From Vicinamibacterales bacterium (GTDB taxonomy: Bacteria > Acidobacteriota > Vicinamibacteria > Vicinamibacterales > UBA2999): a DNA stretch of 57,895 nt. A program made the translations under genes and the position numbers. Location: assembly GCA_050747925.1 (NCBI GenBank), contig JBOGIV010000566.1:1-57895 (forward strand), given 5' to 3'. Shown piece by piece: positions 1,062-52,843 of this stretch. A model generated the notes under the pieces. It saw nothing but the letters and a program-made list of their open reading frames with translations, did not search any database and had not been told where the DNA came from. Each line of letters opens with the position of its first letter. Position 1 is the stretch's first letter.

Positions 1062-1068
1062 GGAAAGC

Positions 1069-4006: not shown

Positions 4007-4013
4007 GGCGCCG

Positions 4014-5027
4014 ATGTACGAACAGTTTTTTGGGTTCAAAGAACGCCCATTCGATCTGACGCCGAATCCGCGATTCATCGTGCTGACCGCGTCGCATCGA
4101 GAGGCGCTCAGCAACCTCGAGTATGCGATTGCCAGCCGCAAGGGCGTCACCGTGCTCATCGGGGAAGCCGGTTCAGGAAAGACGACCGTCATCCGGACGG
4201 CGATCTGGAAGCAGCCCGCGCGCGTGCATTCGGTCCACCTGAACAATCCCACCATGTCGCGCGCCGAATTCTGTGAGATGCTCGCGACCCGCTTTGGTCT
4301 GTCCGATTCTGCCAGACGGTCGAAGACTGCCCTGCTGATCGAGTTAGAGGCCCTGCTGCGCAACCGGCGGCTTCACGGCGAGATCAGCCTGCTCATCATC
4401 GACGAAGCGCAGAGCTTGCCGCTCGAATTACTCGAAGAGATTCGCCTGCTCGCGAATATCGAAAGCGACGACGACAAGCTGCTCTCGGTGATTCTCGCGG
4501 CCCAACCCGAGCTGGCAGGCCGACTGAACAACCAGGAATTGCGTCAGCTGAAACAGCGGATCGCGCTGCGGTGCGAGCTGCGTCCGCTCACGTCGGGTGA
4601 GACGGTGACGTATCTCGAGGGACGCATCCGAGCCGCCGGCGGTGTCGGGACCAGCGTGTTCACACGCGAAGCCGTGGAGCTGATGCACGTCCGGTCACAC
4701 GGCATCCCGCGCACGCTGAACGTCCTCGCCGACAACGCCCTGCTGGGTGGCTATGCGGCCGGCACGAAGCCGGTCGGAAGTCAGACCGTGCGCGAGGTGT
4801 GCCGAGACTTCGACCTGGGCGATTCCAACGGCGAGTTCTCGCAATTGCCTGAACCCGGCGTGTCGGAGTCGTCACCACGGCCCGTTTCCCCCATGGGCCT
4901 CCCCCCTAGACCCGCGCTCGATCGGCAGACGGCGGTCAGAGACTCAGACCGAGACCACCAACCGGCGCAGAACGTGTTTGGGGACTTCGCGACAAAACGA
5001 AAGCGCTTTTCGTTTTTCAGGAACTGA
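4014..5027 (+). CDS. ExeA/GspA-like AAA ATPase (PEP-CTERM-locus secretion ATPase type)
   Basis: Walker A GEAGSGKTT and Walker B LLIIDEAQSL. The N-terminal MYEQFFGFKERPFDLTPNPRF is typical of ExeA-like proteins. Confidence 0.85.
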   Translation: MYEQFFGFKERPFDLTPNPRFIVLTASHREALSNLEYAIASRKGVTVLIGEAGSGKTTVIRTAIWKQPARVHSVHLNNPTMSRAEFCEMLATRFGLSDSARRSKTALLIELEALLRNRRLHGEISLLIIDEAQSLPLELLEEIRLLANIESDDDKLLSVILAAQPELAGRLNNQELRQLKQRIALRCELRPLTSGETVTYLEGRIRAAGGVGTSVFTREAVELMHVRSHGIPRTLNVLADNALLGGYAAGTKPVGSQTVREVCRDFDLGDSNGEFSQLPEPGVSESSPRPVSPMGLPPRPALDRQTAVRDSDRDHQPAQNVFGDFATKRKRFSFFRN

Positions 5028-5039
5028 GGAGAGCGACCC

Positions 5040-5951
5040 ATGGGAAGAGTGGAGGCTGCCCTGGCGAAGGCCGCGGCGGCCCGTGGAGCTGAAACTGAAG
5101 AAAAACCGGGCACGGCGGCCAGCGTGCCCGCTGCGCCTGTCGAACGTGAACGTGAACATGAGCGTGAACGTCAACGTGAACGTGAAAGAGCGCCTGAGCG
5201 CGCGACGGTGGTTACCACGGAAGTACGCGTGGAGGACCTTGACGCCGCAGTGTCCCGGAAGGTCGTGGTGGACCAGAAGATTCTGCCGGGTTCGCGCGAA
5301 CAGTACCGTCGGCTTGCCGCAGGCCTGCATCAGGCGCAGGCGTCGGCCGCCATCAAGGTGGTCATGATTTCCAGCGCCGTGCCCGGCGAGGGAAAGACGC
5401 TGACGGCGTCGAATCTCTCGCTGACGTTGAGTGAGTCGTACCATCGACGGGTGCTGCTCATCGATGCCGACCTTCGCCGACCGGGGCTTCATCGCCTCTT
5501 CAAGGTGCCGGCCTTGCCCGGGCTGACGGATTGCTTATTGGCGAGCGAGGAGCGCGCCATCCGCCCCCATCAGATCTCCTCGCATCTCTCGTTGTTGCCG
5601 GCCGGGACGCCGAATCCGGATCCGATGGCCGTCCTGACTTCGACTCGCATGCGGCACATTCTGGACGACGCTCGCGAGGCGTTTGATTGGGTGATTCTCG
5701 ATACGCCGCCGATCGGACTGCTTTCCGACGCCACCCTCCTCGCCGCGAACGTCGACGCGACGGTGTTTGTCGTGAAGGCCGGCGAAACGCCTTTTGAGTT
5801 GGTAAAGCGAGCCGTTGAGATCGTCGGATCCGATCGATTGCTGGGGGTGGTGTTGAATCGCGCGACGCCCGATCCGCAGCGGTACGGATACGGATATTCG
5901 CAGTACGCGAGCCGCAAGGCGGCGACGGGGAACTCCGACAAACCACAATGA
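5040..5951 (+). CDS. BY-type protein-tyrosine autokinase (EpsG-like; kinase half of a split PCP2 system)
   Basis: Walker A SSAVPGEGKTLTASNLS, Walker A' LLIDADLRRP and Walker B VILDTPP. C-terminal Tyr cluster RYGYGYSQYASRK. N-terminal MGRVEAALAKA. Confidence 0.9.
   Translation: MGRVEAALAKAAAARGAETEEKPGTAASVPAAPVEREREHERERQRERERAPERATVVTTEVRVEDLDAAVSRKVVVDQKILPGSREQYRRLAAGLHQAQASAAIKVVMISSAVPGEGKTLTASNLSLTLSESYHRRVLLIDADLRRPGLHRLFKVPALPGLTDCLLASEERAIRPHQISSHLSLLPAGTPNPDPMAVLTSTRMRHILDDAREAFDWVILDTPPIGLLSDATLLAANVDATVFVVKAGETPFELVKRAVEIVGSDRLLGVVLNRATPDPQRYGYGYSQYASRKAATGNSDKPQ
5142..5192 (+). repeat. imperfect hexanucleotide repeat (GAACGT)n inside the kinase gene, encoding an (Glu-Arg)n tract
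   Basis: The units read GAACGT GAACGT GAACAT GAGCGT GAACGT CAACGT GAACGT GAAAGA GCG, in frame, and translate to EREREHERERQRERERA. Confidence 0.9.
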
Positions 5952-7333
5952 GATTTCGTGTGTGGGCGCGACTCGTCGCTCTGCTGATCTTCGAGGCGGT
6001 CCTGATCGTCGTGGCCGTCGCGGTCGCGGCCTACCTGCGCTTGGGTGACTTCGCGTGGGTCGCCATCGTCAACGAGGGCGGCGCCTACAAGGCGCTGCTG
6101 CTGGCTGGCGTGACACAGGTGTGCCTGTTTTACGCCGACCTCTACGATCTGCGCCTGGTTGCGGAGCGGCGCGAGCTTTTCACCCGCATGCTCGAAGCTC
6201 TCGGAGCGGCATCGCTGATCCTGGCGCTGATCTACTACTGGTTTCCGGACCTCGTCGTCGGCCGCGGCGTCTTCCTGATCTCTGCGCTGTTCGTGATCGT
6301 GTTGGTTGGCGGCTGGCGGCTCGCGTTCTACTGGCTCGGGCCGCGACTCGCCCCGCGTGAGCGCCTGCTCTTGGTGGGCACTGGCGCCGGCGCGCTGGCT
6401 CTGTCAAAGGAACTGTTCGATCGCCACGAGCTCGGCGTCACGATCGTCGGCTTCGTTGATCCCGATCCGACGATGGTGGGTCAGCCGATGATCAATCCAG
6501 GCGTGATCGGCACCATCGAGGACATCCCCTCCATCGTTCGTGGCCTCGGCGTCGATCGCGTCGTCGTCAGCCTCACCGACGCTCGTGGAAAGCTGCCGAT
6601 GGAGAAGCTGCTCGAGATGCGTCTCGGCAGCGGTGTGGCATTTGATCATCTCGCAACGGTGTACGAAAAGTACACAGGGAAGATCGCCGTTGAGAATCTG
6701 CGGCCGAGCTGGCTGATCTTTGCTGAAGGCTTCAGAAAAACTCGCGCGCTGCAGGCCGTCAAGCGTGCGATGGACGTTGTCCTGTCGATGACCAGCTTGA
6801 TTTTCCTCGCTCCAGTCGGACTGCTGGTTGCCATTCTGGTGAAGCTCACCTCGAGGGGCCCGGTTTTCTACCATCAGACCCGGGTTGGGTATCAGGGCCG
6901 TCATTTCGTCGTTCATAAATTTCGTTCGATGCGGACGGATGCCGAGGCGGAGACCGGCGCGGTCTGGGCCTCGTCGAACGATGTGCGCGTCACTCCGCTG
7001 GGACGCTGGCTGCGGTTGACGCGCCTGGACGAAGTTCCGCAGTTGTGGAACGTGTTGCTTGGCGAGATGAGCCTCGTCGGTCCGCGTCCCGAGCGCCCAG
7101 AGTTCGTCTCGAAGTTGACGGAGAGCATTCCGTTCTACGGCTTGCGAAACGGCGTGAGACCCGGCCTCACGGGGTGGGCACAGGTCCGCTACACATATGG
7201 GGCGTCGGTCGAGGACGCGCTCGAAAAGCTCCAGTACGACCTCTTCTATATGAAGCATGTGTCGATCACGCTGGACCTGTTGATTCTCTTCCTCACCGTG
7301 AAGACCGTCTTGCTTCGCCGGGGATCTCAGTGA
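5948..7333 (+). CDS. polyprenyl-phosphate sugar-1-phosphate transferase (bacterial sugar transferase, WbaP/EpsB-like priming enzyme)
   Basis: N-terminal TM bundle and a Rossmann-like LLLVGTGAGAL. The C-terminal Bac_transf region reads KRAMDVVLSMTSLIFLAPV..LTSRGPVFYHQTRVG..KFRSM..DEVPQLWNVLLGEMSLVGPRPERPEF. Confidence 0.92.
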   Translation: MRFRVWARLVALLIFEAVLIVVAVAVAAYLRLGDFAWVAIVNEGGAYKALLLAGVTQVCLFYADLYDLRLVAERRELFTRMLEALGAASLILALIYYWFPDLVVGRGVFLISALFVIVLVGGWRLAFYWLGPRLAPRERLLLVGTGAGALALSKELFDRHELGVTIVGFVDPDPTMVGQPMINPGVIGTIEDIPSIVRGLGVDRVVVSLTDARGKLPMEKLLEMRLGSGVAFDHLATVYEKYTGKIAVENLRPSWLIFAEGFRKTRALQAVKRAMDVVLSMTSLIFLAPVGLLVAILVKLTSRGPVFYHQTRVGYQGRHFVVHKFRSMRTDAEAETGAVWASSNDVRVTPLGRWLRLTRLDEVPQLWNVLLGEMSLVGPRPERPEFVSKLTESIPFYGLRNGVRPGLTGWAQVRYTYGASVEDALEKLQYDLFYMKHVSITLDLLILFLTVKTVLLRRGSQ

Positions 7334-8211
7334 GTGGCATCGTGAACGCGATGACCATTGACGTCGAGGACTATTTTCACGTCAGCGCCTTCGACACGAT
7401 CATTCCTCGGGGTCGATGGGAGCGGCTGGAAAGCCGGGTTTGCGCCAATACCGATCGGCTGCTCGAGATTTTCGATTCGCACGGTGTGAAAGCCACGTTC
7501 TTCGTACTCGGCTGGGTTGCTGAACGATTTCCCGCATTGGTGTCTCGCATCGCCGGGCTCGGCCACGAAGTGGCCTCCCATGGCTACGGACACCGGCTGA
7601 TCTACCAGCAAACCCGAGAGGGATTTCGAGACGACGTCCGGCGCGCCAAGGACCTTTTAGAGGGCTCCACCGGCCAACGCGTCGAAGGCTATCGAGCGCC
7701 AAGCTATTCGATCACGCCGCACTCGCTGTGGGCGCTCGACGTCCTGGTCGCAGAAGGCCACTCGTATGACGCGAGTATCTTTCCAATCCGGCACGACCGC
7801 TACGGGATTCCGGGCTCGCCGAGGCATCCGCATGTGCTGCAGCGCGATTCGGGTTCGTTGATCGAAGCGCCTGGATCCACCGTGCGTCTCGGCGGCATAA
7901 ACTGGCCCGTCGCCGGCGGCGGCTACTTTCGCATCCTGCCGTACGGATGGACCCGGTGGGGAATCGCGCGACTGAACCGCAAGGAAGGCCGGCCCGCGAT
8001 CTTTTACCTCCACCCGTGGGAAATCGACCCGGCCCAGCCGCGTATTGAAGTGGGGCGACTCGGTCGCTTTCGCCACTATCGTAATCTCGACCTGACGGAG
8101 ACGAGGCTGCGCCGTTTGCTCGGCGAGTTCCGCTTTGGGCCGTTGCGCGACATTCTTGCCGCGTTTTGCGCGGCAGATTCTCTACGACCGAGTTATGTCC
8201 GTGCCGGCTGA
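7330..8211 (+). CDS. polysaccharide deacetylase (CE4/NodB-type, PEP-CTERM-locus subfamily-like)
   Basis: MTIDVEDYFHVSAF, ATFFVLGWVAERFPALV and GHEVASHGYGH. A GTG at 7330 overlaps the upstream TGA (GTGA). ATG 7351 is an alternative start. The listed ORF start 7045 is read-through of the upstream gene. Confidence 0.88.
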   Translation: MSGIVNAMTIDVEDYFHVSAFDTIIPRGRWERLESRVCANTDRLLEIFDSHGVKATFFVLGWVAERFPALVSRIAGLGHEVASHGYGHRLIYQQTREGFRDDVRRAKDLLEGSTGQRVEGYRAPSYSITPHSLWALDVLVAEGHSYDASIFPIRHDRYGIPGSPRHPHVLQRDSGSLIEAPGSTVRLGGINWPVAGGGYFRILPYGWTRWGIARLNRKEGRPAIFYLHPWEIDPAQPRIEVGRLGRFRHYRNLDLTETRLRRLLGEFRFGPLRDILAAFCAADSLRPSYVRAG

Positions 8212-9229
8212 ATCGGCAGGCCGTGTGTCCCCTGCGCTCTTCACACCCGTCCTTCAGGATCGGTCGAAGCCTCCCCGGCTCTGCTTGGTAGTGGACACGG
8301 AAGAGGAGTTTGACTGGTCGGCCCCGTTTTCGCGCGACAACGTCGATGTCTCCGCGATTGCTGAGGTCGGCCGGCTCCAAACCGTTGTCGGTCGCTATGG
8401 GCTCAAACCCACCTATGCGATCGACTATCCCGTCGCCTCGACCCCGTCCTCAGCTGCGCGGCTGGCGGAGCTTGCCGCACGCGGCGAGTGTCACATCGGC
8501 GCTCATCTGCATCCCTGGGTGAACCCACCTTACGCCGAGCAGATCAGCCTGCGGACCAGCTACGCGTGCAATCTCGGCGTCGAGCTCGAGGGCGAGAAGA
8601 TCGAAACCTTGCAGGCGGCTATCGCTACTCGCGTCGGCGTCAAAGCGCGCAGCTACAAAGCCGGCCGATACGGATTTGGTGCCAGCACCGCGGTCATTCT
8701 CGAGCGGCTTGGTTTTGACGTCGACCTGAGTGTGAATCCACACATGGACTTCACGGGAGATGGGGGGCCGTCGTTCAGGGGATTCACGACGACCCCAGCG
8801 ACCTTTGGCACCCAGCGTCGACTGCTCGAGGTGCCGTGCACGACCGGTTTCATTGGCCGCGCGCGCCGCATCGGGCCAGAGCTTCGTCGCGCGGCGTCGG
8901 CGCGGTGGCTCGAACCGTTTCGTGCCGTCGGTGTGTTGGCCCGGAGCGGCCTGTTGAATCGAGTGATGTTGTCGCCCGAGGGCAACACGCTGGGCGAAAT
9001 GCAAGACCTCACCAACACCCTGTTGGCGGAAGGCTTACGCACGTTCTCCCTCACCCTGCACAGTCCAAGCCTCAAGCCGGGCTGCACACCATATGTCCGG
9101 TCGGTGCAGGAACGCGACGACCTGCTCGAAACGATTGACCGGTACTGCGAATACTTCATGGGCCAGCAGAACGGTGTCCCCAGCACCCCGATGGATGTGT
9201 TCAGTCAGTTGGAGGGCCGCGCGGCATGA
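8195..9229 (+). CDS. second polysaccharide-deacetylase-like protein (WalW-type)
   Basis: LCLVVDTEEEFDWSAPFSRDN and ECHIGAHLHPWVNPP. The ATG at 8195 overlaps the upstream stop. The family assignment is by recollection of WalW-like N-termini. Confidence 0.7.
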   Translation: MSVPAESAGRVSPALFTPVLQDRSKPPRLCLVVDTEEEFDWSAPFSRDNVDVSAIAEVGRLQTVVGRYGLKPTYAIDYPVASTPSSAARLAELAARGECHIGAHLHPWVNPPYAEQISLRTSYACNLGVELEGEKIETLQAAIATRVGVKARSYKAGRYGFGASTAVILERLGFDVDLSVNPHMDFTGDGGPSFRGFTTTPATFGTQRRLLEVPCTTGFIGRARRIGPELRRAASARWLEPFRAVGVLARSGLLNRVMLSPEGNTLGEMQDLTNTLLAEGLRTFSLTLHSPSLKPGCTPYVRSVQERDDLLETIDRYCEYFMGQQNGVPSTPMDVFSQLEGRAA

Positions 9230-11055
9230 AGGTGCTTGGCATCTCACCGCTCGATCAGGATTCGACCATCACCGTCGTTGAAGACGGTGTGATCACCTAC
9301 GCTGCAGCGGAGGAACGCTTCACGCGCGTGAAGCTGCAAGATGGCTTCCCGTGGCGAGCGCTCGAGGACGCGCTGCGGTCGACCGCCACGACGGTCACCG
9401 ACATCGACGCGGTCGTCTATCCGTTTCTCACCTACGACGAGGAGACGCGGCTGTTCGAGCGCAACCTGGCAAAAGAGCGCGACTTTCTCGACGAAGCCGA
9501 AGTGAACGCCACCACCGACGAGATGCGCGACGCCAAGGCGCGCGTGCCGGCGGGTCGTTCTGCGGTGCCTGGCCTTGCGGATCCAAACGAGCGCTACGAA
9601 AAAGGGCTGCTCAAGACCGTCGCCTATCGGGTCCTGGCCAGCGAGGGCGTCGTGTCGCGCAACATCGCGCGCCGCGGTTCTGAGCGCTGGGGCCGCGAAG
9701 CGACCGCCTTCCATTTCAGATGGCAGCGTGAACTGGAGACGGCACTCGATGACTGCGAGTTGTCCGGAAAGCTGAAGCGCGTCGAGCATCACCTGAGCCA
9801 CGCCGCAAACGCCTATTACACGAGCGGATTCGATTCCGCTCTGATCGTTACGCTGGACGGCTATGGTTCGGGTCTGTCCGGATCCGTCAGCGTCGGCCGC
9901 GGAGGCAAGATCGAGCGCATCCATGGCCAGGAGTACCCGCACTCGTTGGGCACCTTCTACGAGTCGGTCACGTCGGCGCTTGGGTTCACGCCGAGCCGTC
10001 ACGAGGGCAAGATCGTGGGTCTGGCGGCGTACGGCGACCCGAATGTTCTGGGTGACATTCTACGGAGGCGGTTCGTTCAGGAAAACGGCGGGTTCCGCAT
10101 CGTTGAAACCAACAACGTGTATTTCGCGCGACTCCTGGCCAGCCAGTTCCCCAAGATTGATGTCGCCGCCGCGTACCAGCGAGTGCTGGAAGAAGTGGCG
10201 ACCGCTTACGTGGCGCAATACGTCCGCAAAACGGGTCTGCGCAACCTGGTGCTGTCGGGCGGCGTCGTCGCCAACGTCAAGCTCAATCAGCGCCTCCGCG
10301 GCATCGACGGCGTCGACGGGATCTTCGTGCATCCGAACATGGGAGATGGTGGGTGCGGCACCGGAGCGGCGTTGCTCGAGTTTGCCGGACGCGCCAATCC
10401 GACGCGTCGCCTGAAAGACGTGTATCTAGGCCCGGCTTTCTCGGACGATCAGATCGCGGAAGCGCTCAGGCGGGCACAGCTGCCGTTTACGCCGTATCGG
10501 CCGATCGAGCCGAAGATCGCACTGCTGATCGCGTCGGGGAAGGTCGTCGCGCGATTCGACGGACGAATGGAGTACGGACCGCGCGCGCTCGGGAACCGGT
10601 CGATTCTCTATCATGCGAAGGAGCCAGCAGTAAACCAGTGGCTCAACCAGCGACTCGGCCGCACCGAGTTCATGCCATTCGCGCCTGCCACGCTCCACGA
10701 ACACCGCGCAGCTTGCTATCAGGACATCGATGGGGCGGACTACGCCGCGCAGTTCATGACGTTGACCTTCGATTGCACCGAAGAGATGAAGCGCAACTGC
10801 CCGGCGGCAGTCCACGTCGACGGCACCGCTCGCCCGCAGCTGGTGACTCAGGAATCCAGTCCAAGCTTTCACCGGATTCTGACCGAGTATTACAAGCTGA
10901 CCGGGATTGCGTCGCTCATCAACACGAGTTTCAACATGCACGAGGAACCAATCGTCTGCACGCCGGATGATGCGGTTCGCGCGTTTCTGCAAGGCAATCT
11001 CGACTACTTGGCCATTGGCGACTACCTCGTCGAGCATCCCGCCGCTCGGCGCTGA
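9226..11055 (+). CDS. carbamoyltransferase, NodU/CmcH family (paralogue 1, motifs intact)
   Basis: MKVLGISPLDQDSTITVV..AAEERFTRVK, EHHLSHAANAY, HPNMGDGGCGTGAAL, GRMEYGPRALGNRSIL, VHVDGTARPQ and LINTSFNMHEEPIV. ATGA overlap with the upstream gene. Confidence 0.92.
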   Translation: MKVLGISPLDQDSTITVVEDGVITYAAAEERFTRVKLQDGFPWRALEDALRSTATTVTDIDAVVYPFLTYDEETRLFERNLAKERDFLDEAEVNATTDEMRDAKARVPAGRSAVPGLADPNERYEKGLLKTVAYRVLASEGVVSRNIARRGSERWGREATAFHFRWQRELETALDDCELSGKLKRVEHHLSHAANAYYTSGFDSALIVTLDGYGSGLSGSVSVGRGGKIERIHGQEYPHSLGTFYESVTSALGFTPSRHEGKIVGLAAYGDPNVLGDILRRRFVQENGGFRIVETNNVYFARLLASQFPKIDVAAAYQRVLEEVATAYVAQYVRKTGLRNLVLSGGVVANVKLNQRLRGIDGVDGIFVHPNMGDGGCGTGAALLEFAGRANPTRRLKDVYLGPAFSDDQIAEALRRAQLPFTPYRPIEPKIALLIASGKVVARFDGRMEYGPRALGNRSILYHAKEPAVNQWLNQRLGRTEFMPFAPATLHEHRAACYQDIDGADYAAQFMTLTFDCTEEMKRNCPAAVHVDGTARPQLVTQESSPSFHRILTEYYKLTGIASLINTSFNMHEEPIVCTPDDAVRAFLQGNLDYLAIGDYLVEHPAARR

Positions 11056-11066
11056 CCGAAGACCGT

Positions 11067-12704
11067 ATGAATGTCCTCGGCATATCGGGACGATATCGAG
11101 AGGCCGCCGCGGCGATCGCCATCGATGGACAGATCGCGGCGGCGGCATCCGAGGATTCGTTCGCCCGAGTGGCCGGCATCGGCTATACGCACACAGGGGG
11201 GATTCCGAAGGCAGCGGTCGACGCGTGTCTCGAGAGGACTGCGCTCACGCTCGCCGATATCGATCGCGTCACCGTCGTCGACGATGACGGGCCGGCTGCG
11301 AGCGGACCCGAAACTCGTTGGGACCCGCTGATGCCCGTTTGGACGCCGCCCACTGCGCGCGCGCGAGCGGCAGCCGTGGCGATCGATCCTGTGCTCGCCG
11401 ACGCGATCCAGGTCGCCGCCAGCGCCGACGACGTCGACCTCGTCTTGATCTGCAGCACGCATCCCGCAGCGATTACCACGTTTGTCCGAAATGGGGAGCG
11501 GCTCGTTCGGCACAACCGCTTCGACGGCGGTGAGCGATTGATGTCAACGGCCCACCTGCTGGCGACGGCCCTTGGCGTGTCGTCAGACGATCCCTTTCAT
11601 TCTCTAGACCGCTTGAGCATCGGCGGTGAGCTCGAGTTCAGGACCGAGATGGGCGCCGCGATTCACTGGAGTCCCACAGGTGGCGTGTCGGTCCATGCCG
11701 ATGGATTGAACCGCCTGCTGCATGCCTGTGGAGGCGCCAAGGGGAGCCGCCTCGATGACGCCTCCTCGCTCAACGCGCGGGTTCAGCAGACCAGGCGATC
11801 GCTGGCGGCGAGTTTTACACACAGTCTTGCGCAGGTTGTCAGCGATGCCGCCGAGACCAGTCGTAAGGCCGACGGCAAAATGGCGGTCGGCCTTGGGGGT
11901 GGCATGTCTGCCAACCCCGGATTCAACACGGAACTGCGGCAGCTTGCGGGTGATGACCTTCGACAGGCGCTGGTCCCGGAGCCTGTGGGTCGAGCGTTGG
12001 GTGCTGCGCTGGCATCGTCGCTGGGCGACGAGGCAGGTAAACGCCTCTCGGGCCTGGCGCTTGGGCCCGCGTACACCGAAGCGGAGATCAAGCGGACCCT
12101 CGACAATTGTCGTCTCGACTACGTCTATGAGCCGGATTGGCAACGACTCATCGGTCGCGTCTCGGCCATGCTCGCTCAAGGCAAGGTCGTGGCCTGGTTT
12201 CAAGGAGCGATGGCGTTTGGCCCGCGCCCCCTGGGGTCGCGCAGCGTCCTCTGCGACCCGTCTGGGCGATACGCCCGTCAGAACATCAACGAGTACCTGC
12301 GGCATTTGCCACTCGACGAGCCACTCCCCGTCGCGTTTGCGCCGTCGGCGGTAGAGCAGTGTCTCAGTGGATCGGTGTTGAGCCCTCCGAGAGTCGTCGA
12401 TGCGTCTGTGCGGGCAGAGTGGCGCGACCAATTGGTATCGGCCCTCGATTGGCAGCATCGAGTTCGCGTCCAAGCGATCGGATCTTCGCAGGCGCCGGCG
12501 ATGTGCGAGTTGCTCGAGTGCCACTTCCAGAGGACCGGCGTCCCGGCGTTAATCGAGACCAGGCTCGGGACTTCCGGCGAACCGGTTGCCTGCGCTCCTC
12601 GCGACGCCGTTCGGACCGTGTATTCCTCGGCGATTGACGCGCTGGTGATCGGCCGCTTCCTGCTGATGAAGGATTACTGGTTACTTCGGAGCGATGGTGC
12701 CTGA
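11067..12704 (+). CDS. carbamoyltransferase-like protein, degenerate (paralogue 2; metal-binding and catalytic motifs replaced)
   Basis: It has the same fold signature (MNVLGISGRY.., AWFQGAMAFGPRPLGSRSVL). It lacks the HHxSH motif, has PEPVGRALGAAL in place of GDGG/GDAG, and has IETRLGTSGEPV in place of NTSFN..EPI. Confidence 0.8.
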   Translation: MNVLGISGRYREAAAAIAIDGQIAAAASEDSFARVAGIGYTHTGGIPKAAVDACLERTALTLADIDRVTVVDDDGPAASGPETRWDPLMPVWTPPTARARAAAVAIDPVLADAIQVAASADDVDLVLICSTHPAAITTFVRNGERLVRHNRFDGGERLMSTAHLLATALGVSSDDPFHSLDRLSIGGELEFRTEMGAAIHWSPTGGVSVHADGLNRLLHACGGAKGSRLDDASSLNARVQQTRRSLAASFTHSLAQVVSDAAETSRKADGKMAVGLGGGMSANPGFNTELRQLAGDDLRQALVPEPVGRALGAALASSLGDEAGKRLSGLALGPAYTEAEIKRTLDNCRLDYVYEPDWQRLIGRVSAMLAQGKVVAWFQGAMAFGPRPLGSRSVLCDPSGRYARQNINEYLRHLPLDEPLPVAFAPSAVEQCLSGSVLSPPRVVDASVRAEWRDQLVSALDWQHRVRVQAIGSSQAPAMCELLECHFQRTGVPALIETRLGTSGEPVACAPRDAVRTVYSSAIDALVIGRFLLMKDYWLLRSDGA

Positions 12705-12788
12705 CATGAGGGGGAGATCGCTTCGTCATCCTGACGCCGGGCAGCCCGCTGTTGGTCGTGGCCGAGGTGCGGGGCCAAGAGGAAGAGC

Positions 12789-15602
12789 GTGACCGCCATT
12801 CTTGGCATTTCGGCCTTCTATCACGACAGTGCCGCATGTCTCGTGGTCGACGGAAATATCGCCGCCGCGGCACAAGAGGAGCGCTTCACTCGCAAGAAGT
12901 ACGACGCGCGATTCCCGGTTCATGCGATCCGCTACGGCTTGAACGAGGCGCGTGTCGCGCCGGCCGACCTCGACTACATCGCGTTCTATGACAAGCCGAT
13001 CGCCAAGTTCGAGCGCCTTCTCGAAACCTACTTGGAGTATGCGCCCGCTGGATTCGACAGCTTTTCACTCGCGTTACCGGTCTGGCTGAAAAAGAAACTA
13101 TTCACGCGGCGTGCGATCCAGAAGGCCTGCCAAGGCGCGTCGCGCGCCCGCTATGTGTTTTTGGAGCACCACGAAAGCCACGCGGCGAGCGCGTTTTTCC
13201 CGAGCCCCTTCGAAGAGGCCGCGATCCTTACCCTCGATGGCGTTGGGGAGTGGACCACTGCGGCGATGGGTGTTGGGACGGGAAATCGACTGGAGCTGAC
13301 CCAAGAGCTCCGATTTCCCCATTCGCTCGGCCTTCTCTACTCGGCGTTCACGTATTACTGCGGCTTCGCGGTGAACAGTGGCGAATACAAGCTGATGGGG
13401 CTGGCTCCGTACGGAAAGGCGGTTTACAAGGACCTGATCTATCGGCATTTGTTGGATGTCAATCCCGACGGCAGCTTCTGGCTGGACATGAGCTACTTCA
13501 ACTACTGCCAGGGGCTCACCATGACCAATCGGCGGTTCCACGAGCTGTTTGGCGGCCCGCCGCGCAAACCTGATACGCAACTCGAGCGACGACATATGGA
13601 TCTGGCCTCCAGCATCCAGTCGGTGACCGAAGACATCGTGCTCCGGCTCGGCCAGCAACTCCATCGCCAAACCGGCATGAAAAAGCTCGTGATGGCCGGC
13701 GGCGTCGCGCTCAACTGTGTGGCCAACGGCCGGCTTCTCCGCGAAGGGCCGTACAGCGACATTTGGATTCAGCCGGCTGCCGGCGATGCCGGTGGATCGC
13801 TTGGTGCGGCACTCTTCGTCTGGCACCAGCTGCTCGGCCGACCGCGAACGTCGAACGGCCACAGCGTCCAGGGCCCGAGTCTCCTCGGGCCCGCGTACAC
13901 CACCGACGAAATCGAAGGCTTCTTGCGAGCGACCGGGGCTTGCTACCGGCGTCACCAACACGAGAGTGAGTTGCTCAGCGAGGTCACCCAGGCGCTCGTG
14001 GACGGGAAGGTCGTGGGCTGGTTCCACGGCCGAATGGAGTTCGGTCCGCGCGCTTTGGGAGCCCGCAGCATTCTCGGCGATCCCCGCTCGCCGAAGATGC
14101 AGAGCACCATGAACGTCAAGATCAAATTTCGGGAGAGCTTTCGCCCGTTTGCGCCGTGCGTGCTTCGGGAGCACGTCCACGAGTGGTTCGGTATGAGACC
14201 GAACGAAGACTCGCCGTACATGCTTCAGGTCGCTCCGGTCCTCACCAAGCATCGAGTCGCCACCATCGAGGACAACGGCCACCCGGACGATCCCGATTTG
14301 CGCCGGCGCGTCAGCGAGGTGCGCAGCAGCGTGCCGGCCATCACCCACGTTGACTACAGCGCGCGCGTGCAGACGATTGATCAACAGCATGGCAGATTCC
14401 GGCGGCTGCTGCAGTCGTTCTATGAGAAAACGGGTTGCCCAATCCTGGTGAACACCAGTTTCAACCTGTCGTGGGAGCCAATTGTGATGCGTCCGGAGGA
14501 GGCGTACCACACGTTCATGCAATCAGAGATGGACGTTCTCGTGCTCGAGGATTGTGTCCTGCACAAAGAGCAGCAGCGCGTCGGATTTCAGTGCTGGACG
14601 AATCCTGGCGAGGCGGTTGACCAGACCGCCAATCCGTGGCGCGATCCCATCAGCCAGGAACCCCTGCTCGTGACGTCCACGGGCGCGGAGAACGTGCGCA
14701 CTGGCAAGCGCTATGCCGTGGAGGAGGGGATTCCACGATTGTTCGTCACCGACGACGCCAACACCGACGACGTCACGGAGATCGTAAAGCGCTTTTACGA
14801 GAAGACGCCGTTTCCCAACTACGACGATGTCGACAGCCAACGGGCGCTGCTCGACAAAGCCCGAGCCGGCCGGTTTGCGAAGCTGCTCAATGAGCAAATT
14901 CCCTACAGCGCATCGGTCCTGGAAGTGGGATGTGGCACTGGCCAGCTGACCAACTTCTTGTCGATTGCGCACCGGTCCGTGTTGGGCGTGGACGTGTGTC
15001 TGAACTCACTCCGTCTGGCGCAGCGTTTCAAAGAAACGCACGGGATCGAGCGGGCGACGTTTGCGCAAATGAATCTGTTCCGGCCCGCCCTCCAGCGAAG
15101 GTTCTTCGACGTCGTGGTCACCAACGGCGTGCTCCATCACACGGGGGATTGCCGCTTGGCGTTTCAGCGCGTCGGCGAACTCGTTCGTCCCGGGGGATTC
15201 TTCATCGTCGGTCTGTATAGCGCCTTCAGCCGGCAGCTTCACTACGCAAGACGTGCACTGTTCCGATGGACCGGCATCACCGGCACGTGGCTCGATCCGC
15301 ATTTCGGTCGAGTGGCCGCGGACGGCAAGCGAGAAGCCTGGTTTCAGGATCAGTACTGTCATCCGCACGAGAGTTGCCACACGCTGGACGAGGTGATCGG
15401 TTGGCTCGAGAAGGACGGGTTCGACTTCATCAACTCCATTCCGAAGCCGCGGGGAGGGCCGGAGCTCGAGCCCCACGAACGGTTGTTCGAGCCGCACGAC
15501 CGCGGAAACGTCACGAGTCGCATCAGCAGCCAGCTGGCAAGTCTGGGAAGCGGCTATCGCGAAGGAGGATTCTTTATCGTGATCGGCAGGCGAAGAGCGT
15601 AG
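12789..15602 (+). CDS. carbamoyltransferase (paralogue 3) fused to a C-terminal class I SAM-dependent methyltransferase
   Basis: The N-terminal ~590 aa carry ILGISAFYHDSAACLV, LEHHESHAASAF, AAGDAGGSLGAAL, GRMEFGPRALGARSIL and LVNTSFNLSWEPIV. A Trm112-like strand follows (RYAVEEGIPRLFV). Then comes the methyltransferase motif I VLEVGCGTGQLTNFL and VVTNGVLHH. The start is a GTG with a GAGGAAG Shine-Dalgarno-like element upstream. Confidence 0.9.
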   Translation: MTAILGISAFYHDSAACLVVDGNIAAAAQEERFTRKKYDARFPVHAIRYGLNEARVAPADLDYIAFYDKPIAKFERLLETYLEYAPAGFDSFSLALPVWLKKKLFTRRAIQKACQGASRARYVFLEHHESHAASAFFPSPFEEAAILTLDGVGEWTTAAMGVGTGNRLELTQELRFPHSLGLLYSAFTYYCGFAVNSGEYKLMGLAPYGKAVYKDLIYRHLLDVNPDGSFWLDMSYFNYCQGLTMTNRRFHELFGGPPRKPDTQLERRHMDLASSIQSVTEDIVLRLGQQLHRQTGMKKLVMAGGVALNCVANGRLLREGPYSDIWIQPAAGDAGGSLGAALFVWHQLLGRPRTSNGHSVQGPSLLGPAYTTDEIEGFLRATGACYRRHQHESELLSEVTQALVDGKVVGWFHGRMEFGPRALGARSILGDPRSPKMQSTMNVKIKFRESFRPFAPCVLREHVHEWFGMRPNEDSPYMLQVAPVLTKHRVATIEDNGHPDDPDLRRRVSEVRSSVPAITHVDYSARVQTIDQQHGRFRRLLQSFYEKTGCPILVNTSFNLSWEPIVMRPEEAYHTFMQSEMDVLVLEDCVLHKEQQRVGFQCWTNPGEAVDQTANPWRDPISQEPLLVTSTGAENVRTGKRYAVEEGIPRLFVTDDANTDDVTEIVKRFYEKTPFPNYDDVDSQRALLDKARAGRFAKLLNEQIPYSASVLEVGCGTGQLTNFLSIAHRSVLGVDVCLNSLRLAQRFKETHGIERATFAQMNLFRPALQRRFFDVVVTNGVLHHTGDCRLAFQRVGELVRPGGFFIVGLYSAFSRQLHYARRALFRWTGITGTWLDPHFGRVAADGKREAWFQDQYCHPHESCHTLDEVIGWLEKDGFDFINSIPKPRGGPELEPHERLFEPHDRGNVTSRISSQLASLGSGYREGGFFIVIGRRRA

Positions 15603-15613
15603 GGGAAGCCAGC

Positions 15614-16033
15614 ATGTTGGATCCAGAACTCTCGGATGATGAGCCGGTCGTCACGACTCGGGTCTTGCGGCAATTCGCTGGCATATGGCTCGTGTTTCTT
15701 GGCGGCCTGGCCGCGTGGAGCGCTTACCGCGGATATGACACCCGCGCGTTGGTGCTCGCAGTCTTGGCGGTGCTGATTGGCCCTTTGGGTGTCGTTCGGC
15801 CCTTGGCCATTCGTCCTCTGTTTACCCTCCTTATTGGTGTCACGAGACCTATTGGAGGAATCGTGACTCGTGTCATCGTGGGATTCATGTTCTATGGCCT
15901 CTTTACCCCACTGGCGCTCGTTTTCAAGCTCATTGGCCGGGATGTCCTGGCGTTGAAACGCCGGGCGGGGCCGAACACGTACTGGACGGCCCGGCAAGCC
16001 GTCACCGATCCGCGTCGATACTTCCGTCAATAG
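15614..16033 (+). CDS. SxtJ-family small membrane protein
   Basis: 140 aa starting at ATG 15614. Hydrophobic spans are FAGIWLVFLGGLAAW, LVLAVLAVLIGPLGV and VIVGFMFYGLFTPLALVF, followed by KLIGRDVLALKRR..TYW. It sits immediately downstream of a carbamoyltransferase, as in sxtI-sxtJ-sxtK. Confidence 0.8.
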   Translation: MLDPELSDDEPVVTTRVLRQFAGIWLVFLGGLAAWSAYRGYDTRALVLAVLAVLIGPLGVVRPLAIRPLFTLLIGVTRPIGGIVTRVIVGFMFYGLFTPLALVFKLIGRDVLALKRRAGPNTYWTARQAVTDPRRYFRQ

Positions 16034-16047
16034 CTGGCAACAACGGA

Positions 16048-16254
16048 GTGCTCATGACTGAGAATCGTCCATCCGATTTCGAGCGAGCCGCACTCGAGAG
16101 CGGCAACCCGACCATCTTCAGCGACTTCTGGCACTTCCTGCGCCACAGCCGAAAGTGGTGGCTGCTCCCGCTCATCTGCGCTCTGGTCATGCTGAGCGGT
16201 TTGATGATGCTGTCCGGCACCGCCGTGGCGCCGTTTATCTACACCTTGTTCTAG
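16048..16254 (+). CDS. DUF5989 (SxtK-like) small membrane protein
   Basis: 68 aa. FSDFWHFLRHSRKWWLLPLICALVMLSGLMMLSGTAVAPFIYTLF matches the characteristic KKWWL.P....L...G......APFIYTLF C-terminus. Confidence 0.85.
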   Translation: MLMTENRPSDFERAALESGNPTIFSDFWHFLRHSRKWWLLPLICALVMLSGLMMLSGTAVAPFIYTLF

Positions 16255-16265
16255 TGCGCCAGCCC

Positions 16266-17399
16266 ATGAGTGCGCCTTCGATACGCAAGGTCGCTCGTCA
16301 GATTCCGCTGCGCCGGCAAGTGCTCTTCGTCGCCGTTTGTTTAGTGTTTATCGGCGTGCTCTGCGAGACGGCCGTGCGAGTGCGGGCCTGGATGAAATAC
16401 GGCGCGGCGAACTCAGCGCCTCTGGACACGATGCTGGTCCGCGACCCTGCTTCGAACATTGCCTTCCCGAGACCGGGGTATCGCGCGATGGGCCGCAACA
16501 CGTCGCTGTCGATCAACTCGTTGGGGTTTCGCGGAGCCGAAATCACGAAACAGAAACCGACCAACACCTTGCGGATCGTGTGCGTCGGCGCGTCCACGAC
16601 GTTCGATGCCGACGTGTCGAGCGATGACGCCACATGGCCCGCAGTGCTGCAGCAACGTCTTCGGGAACAGTACCCCGACGTAAGTATTGAGGTGATCAAC
16701 GCCGGCGTACCGGGCTTCGTGATCACTCAATCGTTGGAAAATGTTCGGCGGCGCGTGCTCCCGCTCGACCCCGACCTCGTGATTTTTTACGAAGCCAACA
16801 ACGACGTCGCGCTCGATACACGCGAACTTGCGGTGAGGATGGGGCTGGTCAATGCGTCGCGCGGCCGGCTCGCGGCTGTCAATCGGTGGCTGACCCAAAA
16901 GAGCCTGTTGTTGGATCTGATCGAGAAGAATTTGAAGATCTTGTCCGTCAGCGATGAGTCAGCCGGGAAGATCCAAACGGTTCCGGAAGACCTGCCGACG
17001 CGTTACGTCAGGGAATTGGACCGCATGCACGAGGAACTGAGAGCCGAAGGCGTGGATCTCCTCCTGTCGACGTTCCTGGTCAAGTACCGAAGAGATCAGC
17101 CGAGGGCTGAGCAGATTGAGAACGCGCGGCTGGCGTTCTTCTACATGCCATGGATGACCATCGACGGCCTGCTCAACGCGATGGATCTGTATAACGCAGC
17201 CATCGTGAGCTACGGTCGCACGCGCGGTGTCCCGGTTGTGGACGACCGCACGGCCGTGCCCGCCGACCGCGAGCACTTTGTCGATTGGGCCCACATGACC
17301 GACGCCGGCTGTGTGTTGATGGCAGAGCGGTTTCGACGATACCTGGAGACCAGCGGCATCGGTCGGCGACTCGTCGATCGAGTACGCTCGAGTAGCTGA
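16266..17399 (+). CDS. membrane-anchored SGNH/GDSL-family hydrolase
   Basis: N-terminal anchor VLFVAVCLVFIGVLCETAV. Block I LRIVCVGASTTFD (Ser nucleophile), block III-like VIFYEANND, and block V DWAHMTDAG (DxxH). The start is trimmed to ATG 16266. Confidence 0.75.
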   Translation: MSAPSIRKVARQIPLRRQVLFVAVCLVFIGVLCETAVRVRAWMKYGAANSAPLDTMLVRDPASNIAFPRPGYRAMGRNTSLSINSLGFRGAEITKQKPTNTLRIVCVGASTTFDADVSSDDATWPAVLQQRLREQYPDVSIEVINAGVPGFVITQSLENVRRRVLPLDPDLVIFYEANNDVALDTRELAVRMGLVNASRGRLAAVNRWLTQKSLLLDLIEKNLKILSVSDESAGKIQTVPEDLPTRYVRELDRMHEELRAEGVDLLLSTFLVKYRRDQPRAEQIENARLAFFYMPWMTIDGLLNAMDLYNAAIVSYGRTRGVPVVDDRTAVPADREHFVDWAHMTDAGCVLMAERFRRYLETSGIGRRLVDRVRSSS

Positions 17400-17499
17400 T
17401 CGGCAGGTGCTGTAAGGAGCGCCCCACAGGCTTAGGGGTGACGGCCGATGCTGGTCTTTCGAAACGTTCACGCGACAAACCGCAGGTTTACGAGAAAAC

Positions 17500-18561
17500 G
17501 TGCTGACGCCTGTTGAACAGAGTGAGATACGGGCGCATCCACTCGCTGTGGCTGTGGCCACTGAGACGGACCGTAGCGCCTGGGACGCGTATGCCGCGTC
17601 GCATCCGCAGGCGTCTGGTTACCACGTGTGGTCATGGCGTCACGTCTTTGTCGAGAGCTTTGGCCACGAGTGCGTGTACCTAATCGCCCGACGTGCTGGC
17701 CGCACGGTCGGGATTCTTCCGCTCGTCCACATCAACAGCCTGTTGTTCGGTCGCACCGTTACGTCGTTGCCGTTTGTGAATTATGGGGGGGTCGTCGCCG
17801 ATTCCTTGGACGAGGCTCGCGCGCTCGTGAACCAGGCCGCAGAACTGGCGCGGACGCGGCGGTGCCGGTATGTCGAGTTCAGACACACGGTCCGACGATT
17901 CGGCGACTTGCCCTGCAAGCAGCACAAAGTCGTGATGCGGATGGGGCTTTCAGCCGACCTGTGGGAACGGCTCGACCGGAAAGTCCGCAATCAGATTCGA
18001 AAGGCCGAGAAGTCACAGCTCACCGTGTCGCGCGGCAAGAGCGAGCTTCTCCCAGAGTTTTACGACGTCTTCGCGCGCAACATGCGCGATCTCGGCACGC
18101 CCGTCTACGCCCGCACGTTCTTCACCGAGGTGCTGAAGGCGTTTCCAGATCGCACGCACGTCCTCGTGGTGCGCCTTGGCGATCGACCAGTTGCGTCAGG
18201 CTTGACCTACAGGAGCGGCGACATGGTCGAGATCCCGTGGGCATCGTCAGTGCGCGAATACAACAGCCTTTGTCCCAACCATCTTCTGTACTGGCAGGCG
18301 CTCCAATCGGCTGTCGCCGAAGGTTGCACGACGTTTGACTTCGGGCGGTCGACTCCGAATGAGGGGACGTACAAGTTCAAGGAACAGTGGGGTGCGCTGC
18401 CCATGCCGCTGCACTGGGAATACTGCTTGTTGCGCAGCGAGCAGCTACCCGATCAGAGCCCGAAGAATCCAAAGTTTCGCCTCGCGATTCAGATCTGGAA
18501 ACGTCTGCCGCTTTGGCTCACCAAGATCATCGGACCATTCGTCGTTCGGTCGATTCCGTGA
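17500..18561 (+). CDS. FemAB-family (GNAT-fold) protein, PEP-CTERM-locus associated type
   Basis: DRSAWDAYAASHPQASGYHVWSWRHVFVESFGHECVYLIA..GILPLV..SLPFVNYGG and KFKEQWGA. The start is uncertain (GTG 17500 or an internal GTG). Confidence 0.85.
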   Translation: MLTPVEQSEIRAHPLAVAVATETDRSAWDAYAASHPQASGYHVWSWRHVFVESFGHECVYLIARRAGRTVGILPLVHINSLLFGRTVTSLPFVNYGGVVADSLDEARALVNQAAELARTRRCRYVEFRHTVRRFGDLPCKQHKVVMRMGLSADLWERLDRKVRNQIRKAEKSQLTVSRGKSELLPEFYDVFARNMRDLGTPVYARTFFTEVLKAFPDRTHVLVVRLGDRPVASGLTYRSGDMVEIPWASSVREYNSLCPNHLLYWQALQSAVAEGCTTFDFGRSTPNEGTYKFKEQWGALPMPLHWEYCLLRSEQLPDQSPKNPKFRLAIQIWKRLPLWLTKIIGPFVVRSIP

Positions 18562-18615
18562 CCCTGAACGCGAAGCGAACCGTTGCCGGCAGTCGTGTTG
18601 TGAGGATTGGAGAAC

Positions 18616-18647
18616 AGTGCCACCCACGCAACCGCGTGGATGGCACT
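18616..18647. terminator. strong stem-loop between convergent genes (candidate bidirectional terminator)
   Basis: AGTGCCA-CCC-ACGC-aacc-GCGT-GGA-TGGCACT forms a 13 bp stem with one mismatch and a 4-nt loop. It lies in the 114-nt gap between the FemAB-like stop (18561) and the G8-protein stop (18676). There is no clear U-tract. Confidence 0.5.
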
Positions 18648-18675
18648 CATGACTATCGAAGCCGCGCGTTCGACC

Positions 18676-46211: not shown

Positions 46212-46241
46212 TGGCAGTCAATCGGCCGAGGCGGCCCTGGC

Positions 46242-52842: not shown

Positions 52843-52843
52843 C

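Follow-up and report, generated by a model that had tools for sequence, protein, structure and literature searches.

We analyzed a 57,895-nt contig from a metagenome-assembled genome (MAG) of Vicinamibacterales (Acidobacteriota), hereafter called the window, and in particular the genes that lie between the CE4 polysaccharide deacetylase gene and the FemAB-family gene of its XrtA-type extracellular polysaccharide (EPS) operon. This region consists of two separable modules that have separate histories and have been juxtaposed. Module A (8195-12704) holds a gene for a "WalW-like" protein and two carbamoyltransferase (CT) genes, CT1 and CT2. Module B (12789-17399) holds a third carbamoyltransferase gene, CT3, followed by genes for an SxtJ-like membrane protein, an SxtK-like protein (DUF5989) and an SGNH hydrolase. 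The arrangement is real, selected and recurrent, and its most original feature is a conserved pair formed by a predicted active and a predicted dead CT, linked to a second enzyme of the CE4 fold. An initial annotation had described the same genes as one six-gene carbamoylation cassette inserted between the CE4 and FemAB genes. Related loci tell against a single unit, since they show two separable modules and FemAB often stands right after CT2.

The evidence for the two modules comes from surveys of related loci (numbered here with the prefix L). A scan seeded with CT2 yielded 80 contigs from JGI and other metagenome assemblies which, together with the genome loci, gave 83 CT2 loci. CT1 was found directly upstream of CT2 in all 39 loci with room for it, and the WalW-like gene was located two genes upstream of CT2 in 27 of the 29 loci where it could have been seen. 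The genes after CT2 followed three configurations. FemAB came directly after CT2 in 36 loci, with CT3, SxtJ, SxtK and the SGNH gene beyond it where the contig was long enough; in ten loci CT3 began more than 300 nt beyond CT2, at about 1.1 kb in the cases measured, and four of these had FemAB beside the upstream CE4 gene; and CT3 followed directly, as in the window, in three (L095, L161 and L162). FemAB was located upstream of the WalW-like gene, next to CE4, in at least eight loci; only the window, L161, L162, L163 and an 81.7-kb JGI contig had it past the SGNH gene. It therefore takes three different positions relative to module B across the loci. Because the WalW-like gene, CT1 and CT2 travel together while FemAB shifts relative to module B, we regard the region as two modules. 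Among the 18 loci with at least 6.5 kb of sequence downstream of CT2, 13 carried CT3 and SxtJ and five did not.

The order of the window, from the priming transferase to FemAB, was repeated gene for gene in three JGI contigs of 81.7, 52.7 and 25.2 kb, and its distal part in one Logan contig; these four contigs showed 70-91% amino acid identity. The combination is common in uncultured soil bacteria. We found no study of this arrangement and no function assigned to it in the literature, so that of the two things that could have made it a described system, being common and being already assigned, only the former was borne out (83 loci and the order in four further contigs). The term "DUF5989" was not found in the literature searched, and just two papers there mentioned both a carbamoyltransferase and an exosortase, neither of them in the title or abstract. 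A recent insertion of module B by a mobile element was considered and rejected, as no flanking direct or inverted repeats, GC shift, internal promoter or terminator were found. We also observed that CT2 and CT3 are about 1.2 kb apart in locus L124 and that a gene of opposite orientation lies between them (11656-12894, minus strand), for a 412-amino acid multi-pass membrane protein whose motifs look VanZ-like by eye. The other loci with the order CE4-FemAB-WalW-CT1-CT2 have a CT2-CT3 gap of similar size, and the window is without such a gene.

Module B was surveyed on its own with a scan seeded with SxtJ and restricted to one genome per species, which gave 80 loci from Planctomycetota, Acidobacteriota, Verrucomicrobiota, Omnitrophota, Pseudomonadota and others. 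A CT3-type gene adjoined SxtJ in 74 of them and SxtK was detected beside SxtJ in 74; CT1 and CT2 were also present in just two (L030 and L041). In five of the loci that lack a CT gene, the contig begins with SxtJ. An SGNH open reading frame (ORF), searched for with two iterations of the profile, directly flanks the CT-SxtJ-SxtK trio in 34 of the 80 loci. In Isosphaeraceae and other Planctomycetota the trio is found near genes for Wzc-like, DUF3485/EpsI, exosortase EpsH and WecG proteins, and in Omnitrophota near genes for nucleotide-sugar enzymes; named strains of Aquisphaera, Paludisphaera and Tautonia carry the CT-SxtJ-SxtK(-SGNH) module. Clustering of 854 neighbouring ORFs revealed no universal neighbour of the trio beyond the CT and SGNH genes. 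An apparent family of minus-strand genes over SxtJ and SxtK was discarded as probably an artefact of antisense ORFs in high-GC DNA.

Four of the SxtJ-seeded loci, all from Vicinamibacterales (L007, L014, L015 and L038), encode upstream of the CT, at about 5.9-8.1 kb, a protein of ~700 amino acids with a partial GDSL domain and a C-terminal TPR region. SxtK was not detected after SxtJ in these four loci, which represent a variant form of the module. Two of them, L007 and L038 (OZ244656.1, positions 4,446,041-4,466,448 and 4,302-24,613), contain the same SGNH-TPR/CT/SxtJ stretch with identical ORF coordinates near both ends of a 5.4-Mb MAG chromosome; this repeat is probably the end overlap of a circular assembly and not a true duplication.

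The genes of the two modules and their boundaries are listed in Table 1. The three CT genes are placed as the initial annotation had them, and both the hidden Markov model (HMM) matches and the NCBI annotation, which has the same three CT ORFs, agree on this. Of the three genes that follow on the same strand, the family assignments of the DUF5989 and SGNH genes were likewise upheld, and the SxtJ-like gene is probably of the family first given. The profile matches that had been anticipated were obtained for the Carbam_trans, Lipase_GDSL_2 and DUF5989 models, but the SxtJ-like protein against Pfam SxtJ and the N-domain of CT2 remained below the respective cut-offs.

Table 1. Genes of modules A and B in the window and the XrtA-type genes that bound them.
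Gene product	Position	Strand	Supporting match	Place in region
XrtA-system CE4 polysaccharide deacetylase	7351..8211	+	TIGR03006 402.7 bits (cut-off 276.2); Polysacc_deac_1 and DUF3473 match	Upstream boundary
"WalW-like" protein	8195..9229	+	Predicted CE4 fold (structure model)	Module A, gene 1
CT1, putative divergent class III carbamoyltransferase	9226..11055	+	Carbam_trans_N 4e-40; Carbam_trans_C 3e-58	Module A, gene 2
CT2, predicted dead carbamoyltransferase paralogue	11067..12704	+	Carbam_trans_C 1e-31	Module A, gene 3
CT3, putative O-carbamoyltransferase fused to a SAM methyltransferase	12789..15602	+	Carbam_trans_N 5e-94; Carbam_trans_C 2e-65	Module B, gene 1
Putative SxtJ-family small multi-pass membrane protein	15614..16033	+	Homologues with PF19588	Module B, gene 2
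SxtK/DUF5989 mini-protein	16054..16254	+	PF19451 69.9 bits (cut-off 27)	Module B, gene 3
SGNH/GDSL hydrolase with N-terminal signal-anchor	16266..17399	+	Lipase_GDSL_2 53.7 bits (cut-off 32.9)	Module B, gene 4
XrtA-system FemAB-family protein	17500..18561	+	TIGR03019 385.3 bits (cut-off 260.35)	Downstream boundary

In class III carbamoyltransferases, carbamoyl phosphate and ATP yield carbamoyl-AMP, whose carbamoyl group is then transferred at a Kae1-like iron site; in GdmN the iron ligands are H133, H137, D156 and D333 and the general base is H27, whose H27N mutant is inactive (PMC9633730). We mapped these GdmN residues onto 86 CT3-type, 43 CT1-type and 36 CT2-type sequences from related loci. 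CT3 matches the structurally solved NovN (1e-83), GdmN (1e-82) and TobZ (1e-68), and its catalytic set is complete (H12, H127, H131, D150, D333 and every YrdC-like motif), so it is predicted to be a canonical class III O-carbamoyltransferase. The carbamoyltransferase part covers amino acids 1 to ~600 of this 937-amino acid protein (about 12789-14590). It is followed at about amino acids 690-880 (about 14850-15430) by a class-I S-adenosylmethionine (SAM) methyltransferase domain that the initial annotation had missed; five Methyltransf families, 31, 12, 11 and 25 among them, match at ~1e-14 to 1e-13, the best over amino acids 709-811. The same fusion was identified in L001, L040, L051, L055, L057, L161 and L162, and it is present in five loci of the 80 seeded with SxtJ. 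The CT3 of the window shows 77% identity with that of L001 and 65-67% with the CT3 of syntenic EPS loci. The NodS match of the methyltransferase domain (22.9 bits, below its cut-off of 24) was not taken as a sign of N-methylation of the NodS type.

CT1 also matches NovN (2e-75) and GdmN (2e-68), and its iron ligands H188, H192, D211 and D374 are invariant in the 43 orthologues. The position of the general base is occupied by Lys in 39 of the 43 and by Gln (Q11) in the window, where phmmer places Q11 opposite GdmN H27. Codon 11 of the window CT1 (9256-9258) is the sole Gln at this position among the 43 sequences. CT1 keeps the YrdC-like motifs GPRALG-RS, N, R, H-D-R and NTSFN, has replaced K446 by Gly, E449 by Thr and R452 by Met in the YrdC site, and bears an insertion of ~55 amino acids. 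No other gene of the locus is as well conserved, the identity to typical related loci being 80-82% for CT1, 55-59% for CT2 and 60-70% for the remaining genes. The CT1 ratio of non-synonymous to synonymous substitution (dN/dS) between the window and L161, 0.044, is also the lowest in the locus. These features mark CT1 as a strongly constrained putative CT variant with a non-His base.

CT2 is of another kind. Its N-domain match (E=0.013, 15.4 bits) does not reach the cut-off of 24, Arg occupies the base position and all four iron-ligand positions have been lost. The YrdC site is degenerate as well, with H520 replaced by Asp, D522 by Arg and NTSFN by ETNxA, and no conserved His was found in the N-domain of the 36 orthologues. 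An alignment-free count of HxxxH ahead of the GPR motif gave the same picture, as the motif was present in 43 of 43 CT1, 85 of 86 CT3 and 1 of 36 CT2 sequences. Purifying selection was detected by dN/dS on every gene of the region, CT2 included, whose value for the window and L161 (0.11) is close to those of the CE4, WalW-like and SGNH genes. The possibility that CT2 is a decaying pseudogene was ruled out by this value, by the intact ORF in the 36 orthologues and by the strong conservation of its C-terminal motifs. CT2 thus appears to be a conserved pseudoenzyme, a catalytically dead CT paralogue. With the base, iron-ligand and YrdC-site residues gone from CT2, no more than two CT genes of the three are predicted to be catalytic, and only CT3 is of canonical type. 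The proposal that the triple array carries out multi-site carbamoylation is accordingly not supported: one member is without catalytic residues, another is without the base His and CT3 alone is canonical.

The WalW-like ORF (344 amino acids) had been called a deacetylase in the initial annotation, and this name was backed by structure and not by sequence. No match to it was obtained in Pfam (E<=1) or NCBIfam, a sequence-profile search of the PDB with its alignment returned noise only (E>0.7), and hhalign gave a weak 33% probability against an alignment of TIGR03006-type CE4 proteins. The AlphaFold (AF2) model (pLDDT 86, pTM 0.88) had CE4 deacetylases of polysaccharide and peptidoglycan as its top Foldseek matches (E 5e-9 to 1e-5), the best being 3rxz (E 5e-9, TM 0.56-0.68) and others 3qbu, HP0310, ArnD and PdaC. 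The modeled protein thus has the CE4 (beta/alpha) barrel deacetylase fold. Its NCBI product name is "polysaccharide deacetylase family protein". The motifs DTEEEF-W and H-x-H-P-W, invariant in the family, could match CE4 motifs 1 and 2, judging from the sequence only. The family comprises at least 7353 clusters in the protein database.

The SxtJ-like protein scored 18.8 bits with Pfam SxtJ, below the cut-off of 24.4; homologues that share 46-70% identity with it have PF19588, and NCBI, JGI or UniRef give some of them the name SxtJ. A scan with the NCBIfam library gave nothing for this protein or for the DUF5989 protein, even at E<=10, and Pfam was used instead. In a set of 1.84 billion proteins the family has 12,694 representatives (50% identity, E<=1e-3). 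SxtJ contains at least two helices of strong hydrophobicity (amino acids 46-64 and 80-98), and its sequence suggests further, weaker hydrophobic stretches. Conserved in SxtJ are the motif LRQFA close to the N-terminus and, at the basic C-terminus, YG-FTP...GRD-L, YW and YFRQ. In SxtK, a conserved N-terminal segment of ~35 amino acids precedes one transmembrane helix (amino acids 37-55). The helices of both proteins are without conserved His, Ser, Cys or Lys able to carry a group.

A single N-terminal transmembrane helix (amino acids 19-37) with more basic residues before than after it was identified in the SGNH protein. Ser110, Asn179 and His343 are invariant in 14 diverse homologues, Gly150 and Asp340 additionally in 33 closer ones, and an "N-S-x-G-F-R" motif lies ahead of block I. 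The nearest structure to its AlphaFold model (pLDDT 91.7) is CgnD (PDB 8a2n, E 2e-11), followed by acetylxylan and acetyl-mannan esterases. CgnD is a slow hydrolase of the crocagin pathway, which also holds a carbamoyltransferase and a methyltransferase (PMC10070186). In this pathway for a peptide that ribosomes make and that is modified post-translationally these are CgnI and CgnL, respectively; this may be a coincidence or a recurrent association of SGNH, CT and methyltransferase proteins. A profile search with 14 diverse trio-associated SGNH proteins found close relatives only, with no named SxtL among the matches listed.

Concerning the operon, the genes from 420 to 18561 run in the same direction on the plus strand. 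The run opens with genes for an export protein, an unknown protein, a chain-length determinant, an ATPase and a tyrosine kinase, then the TIGR03013 priming transferase; CE4, WalW-like, CT1, CT2, CT3, SxtJ-like, DUF5989, SGNH and FemAB come after it. We re-picked the start codons of the genes downstream of CT3 (SxtJ-like, DUF5989 and SGNH), and NCBI places the WalW-like start at 8201 instead of 8195. The WalW-like stop overlaps the CT1 start, and the genes are separated by 11 nt between CT1 and CT2, by 11 nt from the CT3 end to the SxtJ start and by 20 nt between SxtJ and SxtK. Apart from two wider gaps, which we took as the edges of module B, all genes within the region overlap or are at most 20 nt apart; 84 nt separate CT2 from CT3, and 100 nt lie between the SGNH and FemAB genes. 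No sigma-70-like promoter was found within 7000-19000, terminator-like sites there were fewer than in shuffled sequence, and GC content is even across the window (0.60-0.645). The region is a single run of EPS genes without an internal promoter or terminator.

Four XrtA-type markers scored above their NCBIfam cut-offs: TIGR03006, TIGR03019, TIGR03013 (447.3 vs 393.35) and TIGR03087 (317.2 vs 316.65). Window proteins also match the XrtA-system models for export, chain-length, ATPase and tyrosine kinase proteins, with scores below the cut-offs. No PEP-CTERM tail was seen on the five window proteins whose C-termini were inspected. Two asparagine-synthase-like amidotransferases are encoded in the window, at 31709-33640 and 53755-55962. 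These features are shared in part with XrtA/PEP-CTERM loci such as the biofilm cluster of Rubrivivax gelatinosus, which have in common with the window the export, chain-length, ATPase and tyrosine kinase genes, TIGR03013, TIGR03006, TIGR03019, stp glycosyltransferases and an amidotransferase. However, several window core genes score below the model cut-offs and no exosortase was found among the scanned ORFs of at least 150 amino acids. As the initial annotation had stated, CE4 and FemAB are normally neighbours: in the proteobacterial PEP-CTERM loci of Rubrivivax, Thauera and Rhodoferax they are adjacent with no CT genes between them (PMC3684757), whereas in the window the end of CE4 (8211) and the start of FemAB (17500) are 9.3 kb apart.

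Module B resembles most closely a part of the saxitoxin clusters, where sxtI (carbamoyltransferase), sxtJ, sxtK and sxtL (GDSL lipase, proposed to act as a decarbamoylase) are consecutive, and where SxtJ and SxtK have been proposed to act "in conjunction" with SxtI (PMC2679770); a 2026 preprint still treats the proposed sxt roles as a hypothesis. The two share the gene order CT, SxtJ, SxtK (DUF5989) and GDSL/SGNH hydrolase, and we liken the window SGNH protein to SxtL by family and gene position. They differ in that module B is placed in an acidobacterial polysaccharide operon, its CT has a fused methyltransferase, its SxtJ-like protein falls short of the Pfam cut-off and its presumed substrate is a glycan and not an alkaloid. 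The coupling of the SGNH gene to the trio, which had been thought undescribed, is therefore already known from the sxt order (PMC2679770) and recurs in the 34 loci mentioned above; it is the generality of the CT-SxtJ-SxtK module that we have not found described.

The CT proteins themselves compare with TobZ, NovN and GdmN. CT3 and CT1 share with these the Kae1-like and YrdC-like architecture and the H-x3-H, D, D iron site, whereas CT1 differs in its Gln/Lys base position and its insertion, and CT2 in the loss of both active sites. The C-terminal dimerization domain of GdmN is absent from all three CTs, and CT3 has the methyltransferase there instead. Glycoconjugates are likewise tailored by NodU-family enzymes in the case of NodU/NolO (Nod factors) and WapO (the lipopolysaccharide core of Pseudomonas), and the NodB deacetylase, NodS methylase and NodU of the Nod toolkit parallel the CE4, methyltransferase and CT set of the locus. 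As described, these systems have a single active CT and are without SxtJ/SxtK, a dead paralogue or an SGNH protein. The matches of the window CTs to the NodU model NF041651 (1e-11 to 2e-37) are all far below its cut-off of 1000. WapO, a putative heptose carbamoyltransferase, shares its core-oligosaccharide cluster with a deacetylase and a GNAT protein (PMC8005017).

The SGNH protein invites one more comparison. In PatB/Ape, AlgJ/AlgX and the C-domain of OatA, which are periplasmic SGNH partners in the O-acetylation of polysaccharides, a membrane-tethered SGNH protein is likewise encoded beside enzymes that add a small acyl-type substituent to a glycan for export, a likeness that may be taken as an analogy. 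The window differs in having no MBOAT/AT3 partner, and the nearest solved structures are those named above, CgnD and acetylxylan esterases, and not PatB or AlgX.

The analysis establishes which genes are present, that they form modules, which catalytic residues they retain, that they are under selection and which folds they have; substrates, complexes and topology are inferred as follows. Our preferred reading, which we hold with about even confidence, is that the region represents two tailoring modules of an XrtA-type EPS operon that carbamoylate and methylate lipid-linked repeat units in the cytoplasm. The YrdC-like domain of CT3 would make carbamoyl-AMP from carbamoyl phosphate and ATP, its Kae1-like domain would transfer the carbamoyl group to a sugar hydroxyl, and the fused SAM methyltransferase would methylate the same or a neighbouring residue. 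The acceptor would be a repeat unit that is still attached to its lipid carrier on the cytoplasmic side of the membrane, or else a nucleotide sugar. Class III CTs need ATP and carbamoyl phosphate; therefore the transfer should be cytoplasmic and the acceptor is most likely not the secreted polymer. Of the function first suggested for these genes, the carbamoylation of EPS is thus a reasonable reading, but its placement on a secreted polymer at the membrane is not. SxtJ and SxtK could hold the soluble CT3 at the membrane through their conserved, probably cytoplasm-facing segments, and the SGNH hydrolase, a probably periplasmic protein anchored by a single helix, may trim or remove an ester or carbamate on the exported polymer. 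In module A, the WalW-like CE4-fold protein would deacetylate one position of the repeat unit, CT1 would add a second carbamoyl group and CT2 would serve as the structural partner of CT1.

Several points weigh against this reading. CT1 is without the His whose mutation kills GdmN and has K446G and R452M in its YrdC site, so it may be inactive or carry out different chemistry. TobZ is monomeric, and the GdmN dimer uses the C-terminal domain that CT1 and CT2 do not have (PMC9633730), which speaks against a CT1-CT2 complex. The layouts of SxtJ and SxtK would suit membrane anchors with conserved cytoplasmic faces, and their roles are drawn from topology and co-occurrence; the SGNH domain is probably periplasmic, as guessed by the positive-inside rule from the flanks of its helix. 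In addition, no exosortase (XrtA/EpsH) gene was found among the scanned window ORFs of at least 150 amino acids; it may be located beyond the 57.9-kb contig.

If CT1 were also inactive, the WalW-like protein, CT1 and CT2 would form a complex that is non-catalytic or differently catalytic, for example a glycan-binding scaffold or a regulator, and only CT3 would carbamoylate. The missing general-base His, a position at which H27N abolishes GdmN activity, and the replacements at K446 and R452 speak for this. We think it unlikely, as all 43 orthologues keep the four iron ligands and most of the YrdC motifs unchanged, no gene of the locus is under stronger constraint than CT1 and the conserved Lys at the base position could stand in for the His. 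A different chemistry for module A forms part of a joint reading to which we give the same low weight: module A would N-carbamoylate the amine freed by the WalW-like protein, giving ureido sugars, and SxtJ/SxtK would be general membrane-docking subunits. The data allow CT1, with its Lys or Gln at the base position, to be heterodimeric with the dead CT2 in this case and to act on an amine, a nucleophile that needs a base less. To our knowledge ureido-sugar chemistry has not been reported for class III carbamoyltransferases. If true, a docking role of SxtJ/SxtK, by which a soluble CT could work on lipid-linked glycans, would also explain their presence in saxitoxin clusters.

Module B could instead act on a membrane-associated or small-molecule substrate other than EPS, as SxtI-L do on saxitoxin, and merely sit in the operon. 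The trio occurs in many contexts and phyla and is without CT1 and CT2 in 78 of the 80 SxtJ-seeded loci, the CT3 of the window is nearer to that of L001, in whose 20-kb locus no EPS query gene was detected, than to those of syntenic EPS loci, and the sole relative with a role assigned in the literature acts on an alkaloid. Nevertheless, module B sits within an unbroken operon, co-occurs with EPS core genes in the 13 of 18 CT2 loci with room for it and recurs in exosortase and polysaccharide neighbourhoods of Planctomycetota and Omnitrophota, and we regard this alternative as a little less probable still. The single cassette, with three CTs that would O-carbamoylate three separate sites of the secreted polymer at the membrane, one per enzyme, and an SGNH protein that would edit the product, is very improbable. 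It draws on the fact that all three ORFs match CT HMMs, are co-directional with short gaps and do lie, in the window, between CE4 and FemAB; it does not account for the loss of the base, iron ligands and YrdC-site residues of CT2 in its 36 orthologues, for the separability of the modules and the variable position of FemAB, for the absence of detected flanking repeats or a GC shift, or for a carbamoyl-AMP chemistry that needs cytoplasmic ATP and carbamoyl phosphate. We give the least credit to a split relay in the manner of MBOAT/AT3 and SGNH systems, in which CT3 would activate the carbamoyl group in the cytoplasm, SxtJ/SxtK would pass it across the membrane and the SGNH protein would transfer it to the completed polymer in the periplasm. 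The layout fits such a relay, as the activating enzyme is soluble, the conserved membrane proteins are small and the SGNH protein is anchored in the membrane and probably faces the periplasm; the SGNH gene beside the trio in 34 of 80 loci fits it too. However, the SxtJ and SxtK helices are without conserved residues for carrying the group, 46 of the 80 trios have no SGNH neighbour and CT3 retains a complete Kae1-like site for transfer to an acceptor. We also know of no lipid or carrier for a carbamoyl group.

Other genes of the window deserve mention. Two large proteins with hydrophobic, signal-like N-termini and CEMIP beta-helix domains are encoded on the minus strand, convergent on the operon end (18676-21573 and 21822-25694). 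The larger one (21822-25694) also has G8 and astacin (M12A) metalloprotease domains, and no PEP-CTERM tail is visible at the C-terminus of either. Adjacent minus-strand genes at 33641-36792 encode a UbiA-family prenyltransferase (decaprenyl-phosphate phosphoribosyltransferase-like), a HAD phosphatase and a PMT_2 (GT-C) glycosyltransferase, and look like a lipid-linked pentose donor pathway for periplasmic glycosylation. The 969-amino acid protein encoded at 37094-40003 on the minus strand has a signal-like N-terminus and a match to the middle domain of the hydrazine synthase alpha subunit (PF18582, 2.6e-13), which is odd for an EPS neighbourhood. Genes for ADP-heptose (gmhA and hldE) and for an ABC-2 exporter pair that resembles Wzm/Wzt are found at 45633-47768 and 51613-53641; they suggest that the XrtA-type genes are interspersed with those of a second glycan pathway, which is ABC-dependent.

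When glycans are carbamoylated, their charge, their hydrogen bonding and their resistance to enzymes change. Besides Nod factors and the Pseudomonas lipopolysaccharide core, we know of few bacterial polysaccharides with documented carbamoylation. Loci of this type are abundant in soil metagenomes, and therefore the predicted modification could be widespread in acidobacterial soil slime, where it could bear on soil aggregation and carbon turnover. The class III CT family is otherwise known to us only as single enzymes or homodimers, and the pair of a putatively active CT1 and a predicted dead CT2 would represent a clean, conserved pseudoenzyme case. Finally, the CT-SxtJ-SxtK(-SGNH) genes, as a general polysaccharide-associated module, may offer a tractable route to the function of SxtJ, SxtK and SxtL, a question that dates from the first description of a saxitoxin cluster.

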